Of a stretch of DNA of 20,274 nt, positions 311 through 6,229 are shown piece by piece. Where the stretch lies: the IMG/VR virus record IMGVR_UViG_2548877009_000004, one strand, 5' to 3'. Position numbers and translations under genes: made by a program. Each line of letters opens with the position of its first letter. Position 1 is the stretch's first letter. The notes below the pieces were generated by a model. That model was not told where the DNA came from. It was given only the letters and a program-made list of their open reading frames with translations, and did no database searches. The stretch is from a virus (Duplodnaviria; Heunggongvirae; Uroviricota; Caudoviricetes).

Positions 311-347
311 TGCAGCAAGGTGGTTATAATTGAAAGAATATTTAGAT

Positions 348-1805
348 ATGAATACATCTCATGTAAGAGTTGTTACTCATATGTGTGGGTTCCTGGTTTG
401 GCTCTATAGTCTTTCAATGTTGCCACCAATGGTTGTAGCATTGTTTTATAAAGAAAAAAGCCTGTTCGTTTTCTTTATAACTTTCGTTATATTTTTTTGC
501 ATTGGTGGCGGAGCGTGGTATACAACTAAGAAATCTGGCATTCAATTACGTACCCGTGATGGGTTTATTATAATTGTAATGTTTTGGATTTTGTTTTCTG
601 TTATTAGTGCATTCCCTTTATGGATTGACTCAGAACTTAATTTAACGTTCATTGATGCTCTGTTTGAAGGGGTTTCTGGAATAACAACAACAGGAGCAAC
701 TGTAATTGATGATGTTAGTTCATTACCTCGGGCATATTTGTACTATCGGTCACAGTTAAATTTTATAGGTGGTTTAGGAGTTATTGTTCTGGCGGTTGCT
801 GTATTGCCATTATTGGGTATTGGTGGTGCAAAGCTTTATCAGTCAGAAATGCCGGGGCCATTTAAGGATGACAAACTCACTCCCCGCCTGGCCGATACGT
901 CACGGACACTGTGGATAACTTATTCTTTATTAGGTATTGCTTGTATTGTCTGTTATAGACTTGCAGGAATGCCTTTGTTTGATGCTATTTGTCACGGGAT
1001 TTCCACAGTTTCGCTTGGTGGTTTCTCAACTCATAGCGAGAGTATCGGATATTTTAATAACTATTTGGTTGAGCTGGTGGCTGGTTCTTTTTCCCTGCTA
1101 TCGGCTTTCAACTTCACTCTTTGGTATATTGTTATTAGCAGGAAAACGATAAAACCTTTAATCAGAGATATTGAACTTCGTTTCTTTCTGTTAATAGCCT
1201 TAGGGGTGATCATTGTTACCTCTTTCCAGGTCTGGCATATAGGTATGTATGACTTGCATGGAAGTTTTATTCATTCGTTTTTTCTTGCCAGCTCCATGCT
1301 CACTGATAATGGTTTAGCTACGCAGGATTATGCAAGTTGGCCCACGCACACGATAGTGTTTTTGCTGTTGTCAAGTTTCTTTGGGGGATGTATAGGTTCA
1401 ACTTGTGGTGGAATTAAGTCACTTCGATTTCTTATACTTTTAAAACAAAGCAAACACGAGATAAATCAGCTTTCTCATCCCAGAGCGTTGTTGAGTGTAA
1501 ATGTAGGAGGGAAGATAGTTACAGATCGTGTAATGAGGTCTGTATGGAGTTTCTTTTTTCTTTATACTCTCTTCACGGTGTTTTTTATACTGGTGTTAAA
1601 TGGTATGGGATATGATTTTCTTACATCATTTGCAACAGTGGCTGCATGTATTAATAATATGGGATTAGGTTTTGGGGCTACTGCATCGTCATTCGGAGTG
1701 CTTAATGACATTGCAAAATGTTTAATGTGCATAGCTATGATTCTTGGTCGCCTTGAAATTTATCCTGTTATTATATTGTTTTCAGGTTTTTTTTGGCGCT
1801 CCTAA
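348..1805 (+). CDS. trkG: TrkG/TrkH-family Trk-system potassium uptake protein (prophage moron)
   Basis: The 485-aa product begins MNTSHVRVVTHMCGFLVWLYSL... and is a polytopic membrane protein. Family motifs are present (GITTTGAT, LYQSEMPGPFKDDK, GGCIGSTCGGIK, C-terminal GRLEIYPVIILF). N-terminus matches my recall of E. coli TrkG. The gene is conspicuously AT-rich compared with flanking phage genes. An in-frame TTG at 330 with AGGTGG 5 nt upstream is an alternative start. Confidence 0.9.
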   Translation: MNTSHVRVVTHMCGFLVWLYSLSMLPPMVVALFYKEKSLFVFFITFVIFFCIGGGAWYTTKKSGIQLRTRDGFIIIVMFWILFSVISAFPLWIDSELNLTFIDALFEGVSGITTTGATVIDDVSSLPRAYLYYRSQLNFIGGLGVIVLAVAVLPLLGIGGAKLYQSEMPGPFKDDKLTPRLADTSRTLWITYSLLGIACIVCYRLAGMPLFDAICHGISTVSLGGFSTHSESIGYFNNYLVELVAGSFSLLSAFNFTLWYIVISRKTIKPLIRDIELRFFLLIALGVIIVTSFQVWHIGMYDLHGSFIHSFFLASSMLTDNGLATQDYASWPTHTIVFLLLSSFFGGCIGSTCGGIKSLRFLILLKQSKHEINQLSHPRALLSVNVGGKIVTDRVMRSVWSFFFLYTLFTVFFILVLNGMGYDFLTSFATVAACINNMGLGFGATASSFGVLNDIAKCLMCIAMILGRLEIYPVIILFSGFFWRS

Positions 1806-1891
1806 TATATGGCTGATTTATAATTGTGAGTTTAATATTATGTTGACTCACTCATTGATCCAATACCTAACTTTACCAGCAACCCCTCCGT

Positions 1892-1925
1892 CCCCAGTAG
1901 CACTGGCTGCTGGGGTGCGTTTTAT
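1892..1925 (+). terminator. Possible intrinsic terminator downstream of trkG
   Basis: Inverted repeat ccccag(1892-1897)/ctgggg(1910-1915) with inner ccagt/actgg pairing, followed by tgcgttttatt. Stem/loop geometry is imperfect. Confidence 0.35.
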
Positions 1926-1942: not shown

Positions 1943-2737
1943 ATGAGCGAGAAATTAAAGATAGTCTATCGCCCATTACAAGAATTGTCACCGTATGCGC
2001 ACAACGCCAGGACGCACAGCCCTGAGCAGGTGGCACAACTGGTAGAAAGTATTAAGCAATTCGGCTGGACTAATCCGGTGCTGATTGACGAAAAGGGCGA
2101 AATTATTGCGGGTCACGGTCGTGTTATGGCGGCTGAAATGCTCAAAATGGATTCTGTTCCGGTCATTGTTCTGTCTGGCCTGACGGATGAGCAGAAAAAG
2201 GCGTACCGCCTGGCAGATAATCGCCTGCCGATGAATGCTGGCTGGGATGAAGATCTGTTGCGGATGGAGCTGTCGGACCTAATCAATGCTGATTTTGATG
2301 TCTCCCTGACAGGCTTCATCCCGACAGAAATTGATGAACTGTTGACGGATGTTTTGCCCGGTACAGGAAATGAGGAGGAGCCGTATACGACGAAAATTGA
2401 TACGCCTGTTTATGAGCCGTCGGGCGGTAAACCGGATATCAGTGAACTGTACGACGATACGAAAACTCAGGAGCTGATCAGCCGGATACGTTCGGCGTCC
2501 CTTGAGCCTGATATTGAGAAATTCCTCCTGTGTGCGGCAGAACGTCACACGGTGTTTAATTTCAGCAGAATTGCGGACTATTACGCTCACGCCCCCTCTG
2601 AAATTCAGTGCCTTTTCGAGGAGTCGGCGCTGGTGATCATTGATTATCAGCAGGCTATTGAAAATGGATTTGTCCGAATGACGCAGCGCATGGTGGAGAT
2701 CATGCATGGCGGGGAGGAGGAGGAGGAATATGCGTGA
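1943..2737 (+). CDS. ParB/Srx-like nuclease-domain protein (phage accessory protein)
   Basis: The N-terminal ~90 aa show the ParB N-domain pattern (IVYRPLQELSPYAHNARTHSPEQVAQLVESIKQFGWTNPVLIDEKGEIIAGHGRVMAAEMLKMDSVPVIVL). The C-terminus is an acidic tail (GGEEEEEYA). AAGG lies upstream of ATG 1943. Confidence 0.75.
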   Translation: MSEKLKIVYRPLQELSPYAHNARTHSPEQVAQLVESIKQFGWTNPVLIDEKGEIIAGHGRVMAAEMLKMDSVPVIVLSGLTDEQKKAYRLADNRLPMNAGWDEDLLRMELSDLINADFDVSLTGFIPTEIDELLTDVLPGTGNEEEPYTTKIDTPVYEPSGGKPDISELYDDTKTQELISRIRSASLEPDIEKFLLCAAERHTVFNFSRIADYYAHAPSEIQCLFEESALVIIDYQQAIENGFVRMTQRMVEIMHGGEEEEEYA

Positions 2738-3662
2738 TGATTTTTGCGCCTTTATTCTGACTCACGGGCGACCGGACAAAGTTCTGACTTACCGGACGTT
2801 GCGTCGTGCTGGCTATACCGGGAAAATTTTTATCGTTGTTGATGATGAAGATAAGACACGGCATCAGTACATGGCTGAATTTGGTGAACAGGTGCTGGTA
2901 TTTTCCAAAGCCGATATTGCCAGTCGTTTTGACGAAGCCGATAATTTTGGTGATCGCCGCTCAATTTTTTACGCCCGTAATGCCTGTTTCGACCTGGCAA
3001 AACTGGTCGGGTGTAAATACTTCATTCAGCTCGATGATGATTATCACGAGTTCCAGTTTCGGGTGGATCGCAACTATGACCAGGCCTATTTCCCGATAAG
3101 GAAACTGGATGCGATCCTTTCTGAAATGCTGGCGTATTACGAATCAATACCCGCGCTTTCCATCGCTATGTCGCAGGGCGGGGATTTTCTTGGTGACAAT
3201 GGCGGCCATGCTTCGTGGGTGAAACGCAAGGCAATGAACAGCTTTATCTGTTCGGTTGATCGACCGTTCTCATTCATGGGGCGCATTAACGAGGATGTGA
3301 ATACGTACACGAATCTCGGTCGCTGTGGTGAATTGTTTATGACGATCGGTGCTGTCCAGTTAGGGCAGAAACAGACGCAGAAAAACAGCGGCGGAATGAC
3401 CGAGCTGTATCTGGATTCCGGAACCTACGTTAAAAGTTTTTACTCCGTCATGTATTCGCCGTCGTGCGTAAAAATCTCACTGATGGGTGCCAGCCATAAA
3501 CGCATTCACCATCAGGTCACCTGGAACAACGCTGCAGTAAAAATCCTTCACGAAAAATACAGGAAGAAGACACCCTGCATATCAATGGGGGTGACAAATG
3601 ATTCCGTATTCGAAAGTCGAGTCTCTGGCAGCGTGCCGGATGACTGCACAACAAATCGCTGA
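2730..3662 (+). CDS. Soluble GT-A-fold (GT2-like) glycosyltransferase-like protein, function unknown
   Basis: Motif layout matches GT-A enzymes: FILTHGRPDK (cf. IIPTYNR), IFIVVDDEDK (cf. IVVDDGS), ARNACFDLAKLVGCKYFIQLDDDY (ARN...A + DxD). No hydrophobic transmembrane stretch is evident. The ORF track starts it at 2706; I prefer ATG 2730 because a perfect GGAGGAGGAGGA Shine-Dalgarno precedes it. Confidence 0.6.
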   Translation: MRDDFCAFILTHGRPDKVLTYRTLRRAGYTGKIFIVVDDEDKTRHQYMAEFGEQVLVFSKADIASRFDEADNFGDRRSIFYARNACFDLAKLVGCKYFIQLDDDYHEFQFRVDRNYDQAYFPIRKLDAILSEMLAYYESIPALSIAMSQGGDFLGDNGGHASWVKRKAMNSFICSVDRPFSFMGRINEDVNTYTNLGRCGELFMTIGAVQLGQKQTQKNSGGMTELYLDSGTYVKSFYSVMYSPSCVKISLMGASHKRIHHQVTWNNAAVKILHEKYRKKTPCISMGVTNDSVFESRVSGSVPDDCTTNR

Positions 3663-3849
3663 CGTTCTGGATGTTGATCTGAACCGACTGAAAGAAAATC
3701 GGGAAGCAATGACAGATTTTTATGCGGCCATCCGTAAGGGCAGAGCGAAAGGTGAAGCCGAGTTACGAGCGGCATTGTTTAAGCTTGCCAGAAAAGGGGA
3801 TGCCTTTGCTCTGCGCGAACTACTCAGGGTGGATAAAAATCAGGACTAA
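3598..3849 (+). CDS. Small putative DNA-binding protein (helix-turn-helix-like), possible packaging accessory
   Basis: 83-aa ORF with a GGGGGTGA Shine-Dalgarno 3-6 nt before ATG 3598. An HTH-like segment (TAQQIADVLDVDLNRLKEN) is present. It lies immediately upstream of terS and overlaps the 3' end of the preceding gene by 65 nt. Confidence 0.5.
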   Translation: MIPYSKVESLAACRMTAQQIADVLDVDLNRLKENREAMTDFYAAIRKGRAKGEAELRAALFKLARKGDAFALRELLRVDKNQD

Positions 3850-3852
3850 CTG

Positions 3853-4947
3853 ATGAGCAGACCGGACTGGGGGGCGTTGCAGCAGGAGTATATTGCTGAA
3901 TACACCCGCTCCGGTATATCTCCGGTGGCATGGTGTGAAGCAAGGGGACTGAACTACGCAACAGCCCGTCGTTACATCAAAAAAACTCCGAAAAATGCGC
4001 AGAAAGAAATGCGCAAAACTGCGCAAAAAAGTGCGCGAAAAAAAACTGCGCAGACTGCGCAAAGGCAGAACGGAAAATCTCAGAAAAAAAAGGCTGTATC
4101 CGATGCACTCCTGATTGAGGGGGACACGGAAGAAATTTCGTTCTGCCCCGATGAATTCGGTATTTCTGACCAGCAGGCAAAATTCGCCATGTTGGTTGCT
4201 CAGGGGAAAAAGCCGACAGAGGCATACCGACTGGCTGGTTATGAGGGGCAAGGTGCGACAGCTAACAGCAACGCCAGCCGTATGCTTAGAAATGCCAGGG
4301 TTTATCGTGCTATCAGCTACTTCCGCAATCAGTACCAGAAACGCTATACCGCAGACCTGGATTTACTGGTGAGCCAGTTGATGGCCATTGTCCAGGCCGA
4401 CCCCAATCAGTTGGCACAATTTCGCCGTGTTAACTGCCGTTATTGCTGGGGCGAGAATCATCTCTACCAGTGGCGTGATATTGCAGAATTCGATAAGGCT
4501 GCGGCACAGGCCTCCAGAGATGGTAAACCCGAGCCGGAATATGGAGGCCTCGGCTTTGTTGATAACGCCATACCCAATCCTGATTGCCCGAAGTGCTGCG
4601 GTGAGGGAACAGGACAGCTTTATATGGCTGATACCACACTGCTTGATGGGGATGCGCGGCAATTATATGCAGGGTCAAAGCTCGGAAAATACGGTGTTGA
4701 GATCCTGCTGGAGGATAAGGCTGCCGCCCGGCGTGAATTGTTGCGTTTGCTTTCTGCTGGCGGGGCATTATGTGCAGATAAGCGGCTACAGGAACTGGAA
4801 ATTGAACGGCGCAGAATAGAGAACCAGAAGCTGCGCAAAGAGATCGAAACGGTGGAGGATAATGAACATCCCCAGCCTGTGGCGATCAATATTAATGTGG
4901 TTGATGCCAGATTAAGGAGTGATGAAGATGATCTCTCCGACGCTTAA
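3853..4947 (+). CDS. Terminase small subunit (extended form with basic linker and Cys-rich zinc-ribbon-like region)
   Basis: N-terminal HTH (ISPVAWCEARGLNYATARRYIKK) and a small-terminase-like core (QQAKFAMLVAQGKKPTEAYRLAGYEGQGATANSNASRMLRNARVYRAISYF). CxxC ... CxxCC cluster (CRYCWGENH ... CPKCCGEG). Sits directly upstream of the large terminase. Confidence 0.78.
   Translation: MSRPDWGALQQEYIAEYTRSGISPVAWCEARGLNYATARRYIKKTPKNAQKEMRKTAQKSARKKTAQTAQRQNGKSQKKKAVSDALLIEGDTEEISFCPDEFGISDQQAKFAMLVAQGKKPTEAYRLAGYEGQGATANSNASRMLRNARVYRAISYFRNQYQKRYTADLDLLVSQLMAIVQADPNQLAQFRRVNCRYCWGENHLYQWRDIAEFDKAAAQASRDGKPEPEYGGLGFVDNAIPNPDCPKCCGEGTGQLYMADTTLLDGDARQLYAGSKLGKYGVEILLEDKAAARRELLRLLSAGGALCADKRLQELEIERRRIENQKLRKEIETVEDNEHPQPVAININVVDARLRSDEDDLSDA
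3996..4061 (+). repeat. Six direct TGCGCR repeats phased by A-tracts inside terS
   Basis: TGCGCA/TGCGCG at 3996, 4010, 4020, 4032, 4047 and 4056, spaced 9-15 nt, each followed by an A-run. This stretch encodes the basic low-complexity linker AQKEMRKTAQKSARKKTAQTAQRQ. Confidence 0.7.
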
Positions 4948-6229
4948 TGTGCCTCAGGCGCGATTTCTTTCAATGCCCCATAAATTTAAAGCCTATATTG
5001 CTGGTTTTGGCTCGGGCAAAACATGGGTTGGGTGTGGCGGCATATGCAAGGGGATTTGGGAGCATCCAGGTATAAATCAGGGATATTTTGCGCCAACGTA
5101 TCCCCAAATTCGCGATATTTTTTACCCTACAGTGGAAGAAGTTGCTGCTGACTGGGGATTGAACGTAAAAATTAATGAGGGAAATAAAGAGGTTCACTTT
5201 TATTACGGACGCCAGTATCGGGGAACCACTATCTGCAGATCGATGGAGAAGCCACAAACGATCGTCGGTTTCAAAATTGGTAATGCGCTGGTGGATGAAC
5301 TGGACATTTTGCCGAAGGAAAAAGCCAGAACGGCGTGGCGCAAGATAATTGCGCGTATGCGTTATAAGATTGATGGACTTCGCAACGGTATTGACGTTAC
5401 AACCACGCCGGAAGGATTCAAATTTGTCTACGAGCAGTTTGTTAAAGCCGTGCGTGAAAAAACAGAGCTGGCCTCACTGTATGGTCTGGTGCAGGCATCT
5501 ACTTTCGATAATGAAAAGAACCTGCCAGCAGATTACATTCCTTCACTTCTTGAATCATACCCTCCAGAGCTGATTAAAGCCTATCTTCTAGGACGGTTTA
5601 CTAACCTGACAAGTGGTACTGTTTACCATCAGTTTGACCGGAAACTGAATAATTGCGAAGAAGTGGAGCAGCCAGGGGAGCCGATTTATATTGGGATGGA
5701 TTTTAACGTTGGAAAGATGGCGGGAATCGTCCATGTGCTGCGTTTGGGGCTTCCATGTGCGGTAACTGAAATCATCAATGCCTACGATACGCCGGATATG
5801 ATCCGCATCATTAAAGAACGCTTCTGGCTGTATGATGGGAATGATTACCGGAAAGTGAGGGAAATTTATATTTATCCAGATGCTTCCGGGGATTCCAGAA
5901 AATCAAGTAACGCAAGTACGACGGATATAGCCCAGCTTAAGCAGGCTGGATTTAACGTTGTGGTGAACAGCTCGAACCCGCCAGTAAAAGATCGCGTTAA
6001 CTCAATGAATGCAATGTTCTGCAATGCCAATGGTGAGCGTCGCTATAAAGTTAATGTGAAGCGTTGCCCGTTATATGCCGAATCTCTGGAGCAACAGGTC
6101 TGGGATGAGAAGGGGGAGCCTGATAAAAAATCTGGCAATGATCACCCGAATGATGCCGGAGGTTATTTCATCGTTAAGCAATTCCCTATTGTCAAACCGA
6201 CCGGAAGAGTCACATCACTTCGGATTTAA
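4928..6229 (+). CDS. Terminase large subunit (ATPase/nuclease)
   Basis: Walker A-like motif AGFGSGKT near the N-terminus. Size (~433 aa) and position after terS fit. AAGGAG at 4914-4919 lies 8 nt before ATG 4928; the ORF track starts at GTG 4919. Confidence 0.88.
   Translation: MISPTLNVPQARFLSMPHKFKAYIAGFGSGKTWVGCGGICKGIWEHPGINQGYFAPTYPQIRDIFYPTVEEVAADWGLNVKINEGNKEVHFYYGRQYRGTTICRSMEKPQTIVGFKIGNALVDELDILPKEKARTAWRKIIARMRYKIDGLRNGIDVTTTPEGFKFVYEQFVKAVREKTELASLYGLVQASTFDNEKNLPADYIPSLLESYPPELIKAYLLGRFTNLTSGTVYHQFDRKLNNCEEVEQPGEPIYIGMDFNVGKMAGIVHVLRLGLPCAVTEIINAYDTPDMIRIIKERFWLYDGNDYRKVREIYIYPDASGDSRKSSNASTTDIAQLKQAGFNVVVNSSNPPVKDRVNSMNAMFCNANGERRYKVNVKRCPLYAESLEQQVWDEKGEPDKKSGNDHPNDAGGYFIVKQFPIVKPTGRVTSLRI

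Follow-up and report, generated by a model that had tools for sequence, protein, structure and literature searches.

The 20,274-nucleotide stretch studied here (the window; IMG/VR virus record IMGVR_UViG_2548877009_000004) comes from a full-length lambdoid prophage of the Rac type in Escherichia coli, of which it is the late region, and it contains a two-gene pair. The two genes, ynaK and a glycosyltransferase (GT) gene of the TAGT family (TET-associated glycosyltransferase), form an essentially obligate pair, and the constant partner of the GT is the C-terminal part of YnaK, for which we coined the name YnaK-C, and not the ParB-like domain at the other end of the protein. Our preferred explanation, which we hold with about as much doubt as conviction, is that the pair is a two-subunit, late-expressed phage DNA glycosyltransferase. 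The parts of the pair are:

1943..2737, + strand: ynaK, the 264-amino-acid (aa) ParB-like partner with a ParB/Srx N-domain, a linker and YnaK-C, intact in the window
1943..2362, + strand: YnaK residues 1-140, a nucleotide-binding-type ParB/Srx domain (ParB-CTPase fold) with a short helical extension
2381..2422, + strand: linker motif P-Y-T-T-K-I-D-T-P-V-Y-E-P-S (family consensus YTxKIxxPxYEP), within a predicted disordered stretch
2453..2707, + strand: YnaK-C, an acidic helical C-terminal domain of about 85-100 aa with a net charge of -11, which always accompanies the GT
2711..2737, + strand: translational-coupling junction, read from the sequence, where the GT ATG at 2730 overlaps the ynaK TGA at 2735-2737
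2730..3662, + strand: GT gene, encoding a soluble TAGT-family GT-A glycosyltransferase of 310 aa

The pairing was examined in both directions. Seeding a GTDB genome collection with the GT gave 72 loci (45-100% identity) spanning Proteobacteria, Bacteroidota, Firmicutes, Planctomycetota, Acidobacteriota and other groups. A YnaK-C gene is found directly upstream of the GT, on the same strand and usually overlapping it, in 68 of them; the remaining four are contig edges or GT fragments, so that all informative loci are paired (68/68). Conversely, seeding IMG/VR with YnaK-C gave 80 loci, about half of them near-identical and Rac-type, and a GT lies downstream in every one (80/80), directly adjacent in 75. 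In the other five (L134, L138, L141, L150 and L154), a single gene stands between the YnaK-type gene and the GT, coding for a 317-331-aa fusion of a histidine phosphatase (His_Phos_1) with a cytidylyltransferase-like domain, which may make a special nucleotide-activated donor. The initial annotation of the window would have been refuted had the two genes never co-occurred in related prophages, a refutation that this survey decisively rules out. The pair is also found in cultured phages of Lactobacillus delbrueckii and L. gasseri, in Nocardia phage NTR1 and in Vibrio phages of about 190 kb, and it is retained in a Porphyromonas phage though the GT there is just 27% identical. The archaeal tailed virus HHTV-2 (Haloarcula hispanica tailed virus 2) carries it as gp21-gp22 (L075 11128-12790; GT 43% identical), and the module thus crosses the boundary between bacteria and archaea. 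Identity to the window GT is just 23-26% for the TAGTs of T4-like Aeromonas phages, and at the sole T4-like TAGT locus checked, that of Aeromonas phage Ah1, no YnaK-C gene was found within ±4 kb. A search of 1.84 billion representative proteins returned 1197 YnaK-C clusters at 50% identity; the domain was C-terminal in all 150 hits among the matches listed, in proteins of either about 250-300 aa or a short form of about 130-200 aa. We found no description of YnaK-C or of its strict pairing with TAGTs in the literature searched, relative to which this obligate partner domain with its roughly 1200 clusters is new, and a literature search for ynaK returned nothing on function.

YnaK is built from three parts. 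Residues 23-90 match Pfam ParB_N with 28.9 bits (cut-off 26.3), and both profile and fold place the N-domain in the ParB/Srx group (ParB-CTPase fold, PF02195), in agreement with the ParB N-terminal-type domain initially read in this protein. Over its full length YnaK matches PHROG 620 (E 9e-91). In the structure model, residues 1-135 are folded, residues 137-169 have a predicted local distance difference test score (pLDDT) below 50, and the C-domain is helical. Two tyrosines and one proline of the linker motif are invariant (alignments A7 and A8), and the motif is retained in short partners that lack the ParB domain, even in the minimal ones of 130 aa. YnaK-C has the conserved pattern FLxxAAxRHxVFN...IAxYY...LxExSALVIID...AIxxG and matches nothing in Pfam or NCBIfam; the acidic tail first noticed in the sequence is real, with a net charge of -26 for the whole protein. 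RefSeq/PGAP calls just the first 258 nucleotides (nt) of the intact 264-codon ynaK, as a pseudogene that is "partial, missing C-terminus", a misannotation seen in L001 20001-20795 (NZ_CP019944.1) and in hits H2-H15. The call is presumably due to the reference YnaK being a truncated K-12 remnant, and it leaves YnaK-C unannotated in many E. coli genomes.

The second protein matches Pfam PF20691 TAGT over residues 16-230 (E 6e-35; 121.5 bits against a cut-off of 27.5) and PHROG 842 (E 1.5e-103), which bears the T-even name "beta-glucosyl-HMC-alpha-glucosyltransferase". It has the GT-A (nucleotide-diphospho-sugar transferase) fold, and its fold neighbours include teichoic-acid, polysaccharide and small-molecule transferases; NCBIfam gave no meaningful match, and a PDB sequence search with the GT profile found no relative. 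Residues R14, D102-D103-D104 and E188-D189 are invariant in 31 homologues and correspond to the R...DDD...ED(Y/F) motif described for phage GT-A DNA glycosyltransferases (bioRxiv 10.1101/2023.12.21.572611), except that the residue after ED is Val and not Tyr or Phe. Residues 216-290 make up a basic, conserved C-terminal region, and the last 20 aa or so are an extension specific to E. coli. No hydrophobic segment is present (maximum Kyte-Doolittle 19-residue mean 1.08). The initial annotation had described two adjacent open reading frames (ORFs) here, a ParB/Srx-like one and one with a GT-A motif layout lacking a membrane anchor: both are found on the + strand, the motifs THGRPD, IVVDDED, ARN and QLDDD are all in the translation, and profile and fold searches support ParB/Srx for the first protein and GT-A for the second, with matches well outside what chance would give. 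Homologues of the GT fall into more than 8000 clusters at 90% identity, many of them with source names such as "GREB1-related" or TAGT protein. The K-12 gene "ydaY" was considered as the GT and dismissed, RefSeq ydaY being a tail-region gene further downstream.

The two reading frames are joined in a way typical of translational coupling: the GT start and the ynaK stop overlap by 8 nt (ATGCGTGA), and the GGGGAGGAGGAGGAGGAA run at the junction serves at once as a Shine-Dalgarno-like sequence and as the codons of the EEEEE tail. ATG 2730, rather than 2706, is the most probable start of the GT: it is the one used by RefSeq (310 aa), the alignment of homologues begins at it, and it is preceded by a GGAGG-rich run (2711-2728). 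In most related loci, too, the two genes overlap or abut.

The pair is found in two kinds of surroundings, and these follow the build of the partner. Partners that bear ParB_N place it directly 5' of terminase genes (29 of 52 partners have a Pfam match to ParB_N, and most of the others show ParB-like motifs in the alignment). The large terminase subunits (TerL) encoded 3' of the pair belong to at least four Pfam families (Terminase_6N, Terminase_3, GpA and TerL_ATPase), and in Lactobacillus phage c5 the pair is ORF1-ORF2, directly after the cos site. Partners of about 130-140 aa that consist of YnaK-C only are found within replication modules: L030 and L034 have the order PolA (family-A DNA polymerase), YnaK-C, GT and a beta-clamp homologue, and in Vibrio phage SRILMA (195 kb) the short partner lies amid genes for a processivity factor, single-stranded-DNA-binding protein, exonuclease, primase and helicase. 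This interchange of ParB-fused partners beside terminase genes with ParB-less partners in replication modules is likewise new with respect to the literature searched. We considered that the ParB domain might be a DNA sliding clamp swapped for the beta clamp in the ParB-less loci, an idea weakened by the acidic nature of YnaK and its lack of a helix-turn-helix (HTH); for the same reason the ParB-less loci are taken just as evidence of a DNA-related context. Some loci contain, in or beside the module, further genes of glycan-tailoring type: a second TAGT, class-I S-adenosylmethionine (SAM) methyltransferase fusions to either gene, a radical SAM enzyme, or a nucleoside-diphosphate-sugar (NDP-sugar) transferase with an epimerase. 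The fusions are to the N-terminus of a ParB-YnaK protein in L032 (189-1736) and to the TAGT C-terminus in L055 (3581-5272), the radical SAM gene lies 3' of the GT in L053 (8830-9816), and tandem TAGT paralogues occur in L030, L053, L055 and L057. In L015 (8875-9444; Faecousia), an extra stand-alone ParB_N protein is encoded directly 3' of the GT, besides the upstream ParB-YnaK partner.

In the mechanism that we favour, the TAGT-family GT-A protein would be the catalytic subunit, using a nucleotide-sugar donor at the R...DDD...ED site, and YnaK would be its obligate partner, forming a physical complex in which the acidic C-domain with its YTxKIxxPxYEP linker would contact the GT, probably at the basic region near the C-terminus of that enzyme. 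The ParB/Srx N-domain would be an optional module, a nucleoside-triphosphate (NTP)-binding and dimerising regulator or a targeting device, with a role like the one it has when fused to methyltransferases or when part of the ParB-like proteins that activate phage thymine dioxygenases. Lambdoid and other temperate phages would transcribe the pair as part of the late operon, just ahead of the terminase genes, a timing that in the window rests on read-through of a terminator-like hairpin (1892-1915) from the late promoter; replicated phage DNA could then be modified just before packaging and so be protected from restriction in the next host. The family of the GT argues for such an activity, its characterised members glycosylating DNA, and so does the context: the ParB_N module of YnaK is that of phage ParB-DNA-methyltransferase fusions, and the ParB-less partners lie amid polymerase, clamp and replication genes. 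The extra sugar- and methyl-type enzymes at some loci are consistent with glycan tailoring. The obligate pairing, the overlap of the two genes and the place 5' of TerL genes of different families count for it too. Finally, the ParB-like activators of clade-E thymine dioxygenases provide an experimental precedent, and the YnaK model has the same layout. Initially, the pair had been proposed to modify DNA or protein, in anti-restriction or exclusion, or to assist packaging; these hedged roles are compatible with our findings, and the GT is now placed specifically in the TAGT family of DNA glycosyltransferases.

Several known systems resemble the pair in part. The T2/T6 beta-glucosyl-HMC-alpha-GT is a characterised TAGT member acting on DNA (PMC13216743), and the phage GT-A enzymes that act on 5-hydroxymethylcytosine (5hmC) are structurally related to JGT, the trypanosome base-J glucosyltransferase (bioRxiv 10.1101/2023.12.21.572611). 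The window GT is like these TAGTs (the T2/T6 enzyme and the GT-As of C5-methyltransferase/5mYOX clusters) in profile, GT-A fold, R...DDD...ED motif, solubility and phage origin. It differs from them in that its neighbourhood and the complete genomes with the pair contain no TET/5mYOX, ThyS-type hydroxymethylase or primary GT, and in that it is always paired with a YnaK-C protein, a partner absent at the Ah1 locus. Solitary TAGTs are not rare: a 2026 paper in Nucleic Acids Research counted a "solitary" TAGT of undefined function in 288 of 753 TAGT-encoding phages (PMC13216743), and about 65% of GT-containing viral contigs have no 5mYOX or ThyS neighbour (bioRxiv 10.1101/2023.12.21.572611). The latter preprint, from 2023, listed ParB-like proteins, terminase and clamp genes as neighbours of GT-A genes and did not analyse them (bioRxiv 10.1101/2023.12.21.572611).

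Concerning the ParB side, a 2025 PNAS survey of the ParB-CTPase fold, which can bind CTP, ATP or GTP, described phage fusions to methyltransferases and to domains of unknown function and did not mention glycosyltransferases (PMC12704722). The N-terminal 140 or so residues of the phage ParB_N-DNA methyltransferase fusions are closely related to YnaK (PHROG 498, E 1e-50; PADLOC MTase_II, E 2e-38), and both the fusions and the ynaK pair are enriched in prophages (PMC12704722); the pair differs in consisting of separate polypeptides, in having a sugar transferase, and in its proposed recruitment via a dedicated adaptor domain rather than by fusion. A 2025 preprint showed experimentally that ParB-like proteins are required to activate the clade-E phage thymine dioxygenases on DNA, and that they are composed of a nucleotide-binding domain, a disordered linker of 30-50 aa and a C-terminal domain, with no DNA-binding domain; the clade-C2 dioxygenases, often associated with glycosyltransferases, lack ParB (bioRxiv 10.1101/2025.08.14.668559). 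Like YnaK, the clade-E regulators are small ParB/Srx proteins whose gene adjoins that of a DNA-modifying enzyme with which a complex is proposed, and both the layout (in the model) and the adjacency (68/68 and 80/80 loci) are found for YnaK. The partner of YnaK, however, is a glycosyltransferase and not a dioxygenase, its Box II reads GHGR, and the two are likened by layout only. With the canonical partition proteins ParB, Spo0J and Noc, which are CTP-dependent DNA clamps, YnaK has the fold of the N-terminal domain in common. As a partition ParB itself it was rejected: it scores 38.6 with TIGR00180 (cut-off 58.45), no HTH was detected, the GERR box is altered and no parA is annotated nearby. 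The GtrB-type serotype-conversion GTs of temperate phages are, like the window GT, prophage-encoded and of GT-A fold, whereas the window pair belongs to the late operon, away from the attachment-site end of the prophage. A GtrB-like role was rejected in view of the missing membrane anchor and of the neighbours, which are trkG and terminase, with no GtrA or GtrC.

Against a DNA glycosyltransferase stands above all the acceptor. The cited characterised relatives all place their sugar on a hydroxyl group borne by a modified DNA base or by a sugar attached to such a base, their acceptors being 5hmC, 5-hydroxymethyluracil (5hmU) or a sugar already on 5hmC (PMC13216743; bioRxiv 10.1101/2023.12.21.572611). 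No association of the pair with a hydroxymethyl-pyrimidine or sugar acceptor pathway (TET/5mYOX, a ThyS homologue, alpha/beta-GT) was found. With E. coli ThyA as seed, no ThyA-like hydroxymethylase was detected in 1.78 Mb of loci, and TET/JBP and thymidylate-synthase families are absent among the listed families of flanking genes, whether upstream, downstream or randomly sampled; the check for TET used only Pfam family counts showing the commonest families, which leaves room for rare exceptions. The complete genome of phage c5 (31.8 kb, 50 ORFs), which has no polymerase of its own, contains no unannotated ORF big enough for TET or ThyS, and no TET or ThyS-type acceptor pathway was found in the Rac prophage. 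Such complete small genomes devoid of an acceptor pathway are a further point that is new here relative to the literature searched, and the lack of a known acceptor is the main weakness of reading DNA as the substrate. The partner adds difficulties of its own: Pfam and NCBIfam profile searches detected no HTH or dimerisation families in YnaK, and a strongly acidic protein of this kind is not an obvious DNA binder. Its Box II is G57-H58-G59-R60 in place of GERR(xR), with a single, invariant Arg retained, so that NTP binding is only putative. The structure models are moderately confident (pLDDT 70 and 64). One tentative and rather improbable way out is that the YnaK-C/TAGT pair puts sugar directly on a canonical base or another unmodified DNA position, dispensing with a hydroxymethyl-pyrimidine precursor, with the ParB-like subunit gating or targeting the reaction.

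The absent acceptor keeps alive, as the main but rather unlikely rival, the possibility that the GT glycosylates protein. The simplest target would be YnaK itself, on an invariant Tyr or Thr of YTxKIxxPxYEP, by O-glycosylation of Tyr/Thr in the manner of glycogenin or of toxins; otherwise the target would be a protein of packaging, replication or host defence, with YnaK as substrate or adaptor. A linker motif with two tyrosines in a disordered segment, kept in the minimal 130-aa partners, would suit this role, and no pathway providing a DNA acceptor has been found. GREB1, a eukaryotic TAGT relative, is reportedly a protein O-GlcNAc transferase, which counts for protein and against DNA as the target. 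The characterised phage members of the family nevertheless act on DNA, and the contexts are those of DNA metabolism (polymerase, clamp, helicase, terminase, a ParB-methyltransferase-type domain) and are not next to virion structural genes. Nor would a mere substrate be expected to be co-inherited so strictly across bacteria and archaea. An acceptor that is neither DNA nor protein seems less probable still: RNA (such as a modified tRNA base that bears a hydroxyl), a nucleotide or another small molecule, or a polymer of the cell envelope, the purpose being to counter a defence system or to exclude other phages. GT-A enzymes are chemically versatile, as the fold neighbours of the GT illustrate with their teichoic-acid, polysaccharide and small-molecule transferases, the cytidylyltransferase/phosphatase and NDP-sugar genes at some loci show that specialised donors are made, and the DNA offers no obvious acceptor. 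The GT is soluble, however, with no Gtr-type or membrane partners nearby, and it has no PADLOC match; the pair is placed in the late operon and not as a moron expressed in lysogeny, and the ParB, polymerase and clamp contexts point to DNA. A known defence system was itself considered and rejected, PADLOC giving nothing for the GT and matching YnaK just to the ParB_N part of a methyltransferase model.

Two further explanations have very little probability. As in T2/T6, the GT might be a secondary DNA glycosyltransferase that merely extends a sugar put on DNA by another enzyme, in keeping with the T-even name of PHROG 842 and with the two tandem TAGT paralogues at some loci. Against this, just one GT is encoded at most loci (the window, phage c5, HHTV-2 and Rac among them), where a primary GT and a hydroxymethyl-base pathway are both lacking, and the T4-like Aeromonas TAGTs are distant in sequence, with no partner near that of Ah1; this makes such a role very improbable. 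Least probable of all is that two independent functions lie side by side, a ParB-like nuclease or DNA-binding helper of terminase (comparable to cos-site HNH proteins) and an accessory GT with no relation to it. The position beside cos or terminase would fit this, as would the database records that label the first gene "ParB-like partition nuclease". It is YnaK-C, though, and not the ParB domain that always travels with the GT, the ParB-less versions lie far from any terminase, the terminase families differ between loci, and the reading frames overlap in a pairing seen at all informative loci in both directions. Because of these co-occurrence data, two unrelated neighbours are essentially excluded.

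In the window, the order of genes is lysis-gene remnants, trkG (330-1805), ynaK (1943-2737), the GT gene (to 3662), a small ORF like the small terminase subunit (TerS), and then TerS, TerL, portal, head and tail genes. The Rac-type prophage is integrated at ttcA and carries intR, xisR, ralR, recET, kilR and sieB. Two features border the pair:

1892..1915, + strand: terminator-like hairpin that closes the trkG moron and forms the upstream boundary of the pair, 28 nt 5' of the ynaK ATG
3640..6229, + strand: terminase context, with the small TerS-like ORF (3640-3849), TerS (3853-4947) and TerL (4919-6229); the pair lies directly upstream

The strong hairpin has a 10-bp stem with seven GC pairs, followed by TGCGTTTTAT, and at this point the GC content climbs from some 0.38 to some 0.50. 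The trkG segment (window 330-1915) is a classic moron, with a GC content of 0.34-0.40 against 0.46-0.51 in the flanking phage DNA. The position of the pair had initially been called a known cargo hotspot, and a moron or cargo status of the pair was rejected: unlike trkG, the pair has the GC content of the phage backbone (0.46-0.51), and its position 5' of terminase is kept in unrelated phages. The terminase genes were identified by Pfam Terminase_2, Terminase_6N and Terminase_6C and by PHROG 309, 51 and 2. ORF 3640-3849 encodes 69 aa, or 83 aa when counted from the first ATG (3598). It matches the central part of a TerS profile (PHROG 309, E 8e-23) and precedes a Terminase_2 TerS of 364 aa; the same small gene is present between GT and TerS in loci of Pantoea, Superficieibacter and Serratia. 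This arrangement suggests either a two-part small terminase or a packaging accessory protein encoded by the small ORF. Inside the TerS gene, at 3991-4054, four direct copies of AAAA(A/C)TGCGCA(G/A)A occur at spacings of 10-27 nt, where TerS has a low-complexity stretch rich in lysine; the copies may constitute a pac or TerS-binding array, or just mirror the repetitive peptide.

The 1.7 kb of the pair is matched, at least partially, in 1580 of 5426 complete E. coli genomes (about 29%) and also in 10 phage records, and at least 80% of it is present in 889 of the 1580 matching genomes (16% of the complete genomes). ynaK is split into two ORFs in a Shigella flexneri copy (L002 7102-8008) and interrupted by IS1 in E. 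coli MB06173 (H1). Together, the share of genomes that keep at least 80% of the pair and these broken copies of ynaK indicate that decay of the module is common in cryptic prophages.

The pair, two small soluble genes of an E. coli prophage, is an experimentally convenient representative of the "solitary" phage glycosyltransferases. If its target is a protein, it would constitute a new phage glycosylation system. If its target is DNA, it would reveal a new DNA modification or a new acceptor, the idea of ParB-like activators would extend from dioxygenases and methyltransferases to glycosyltransferases, and the finding would matter for anti-restriction, for defences of type IV or based on glycosylases, and for DNA-labelling enzymes. 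A precursor-free sugar on DNA would, if true, be a new kind of DNA modification, and it would occur in Rac-type prophages and in phages of many bacterial phyla and of haloarchaea.

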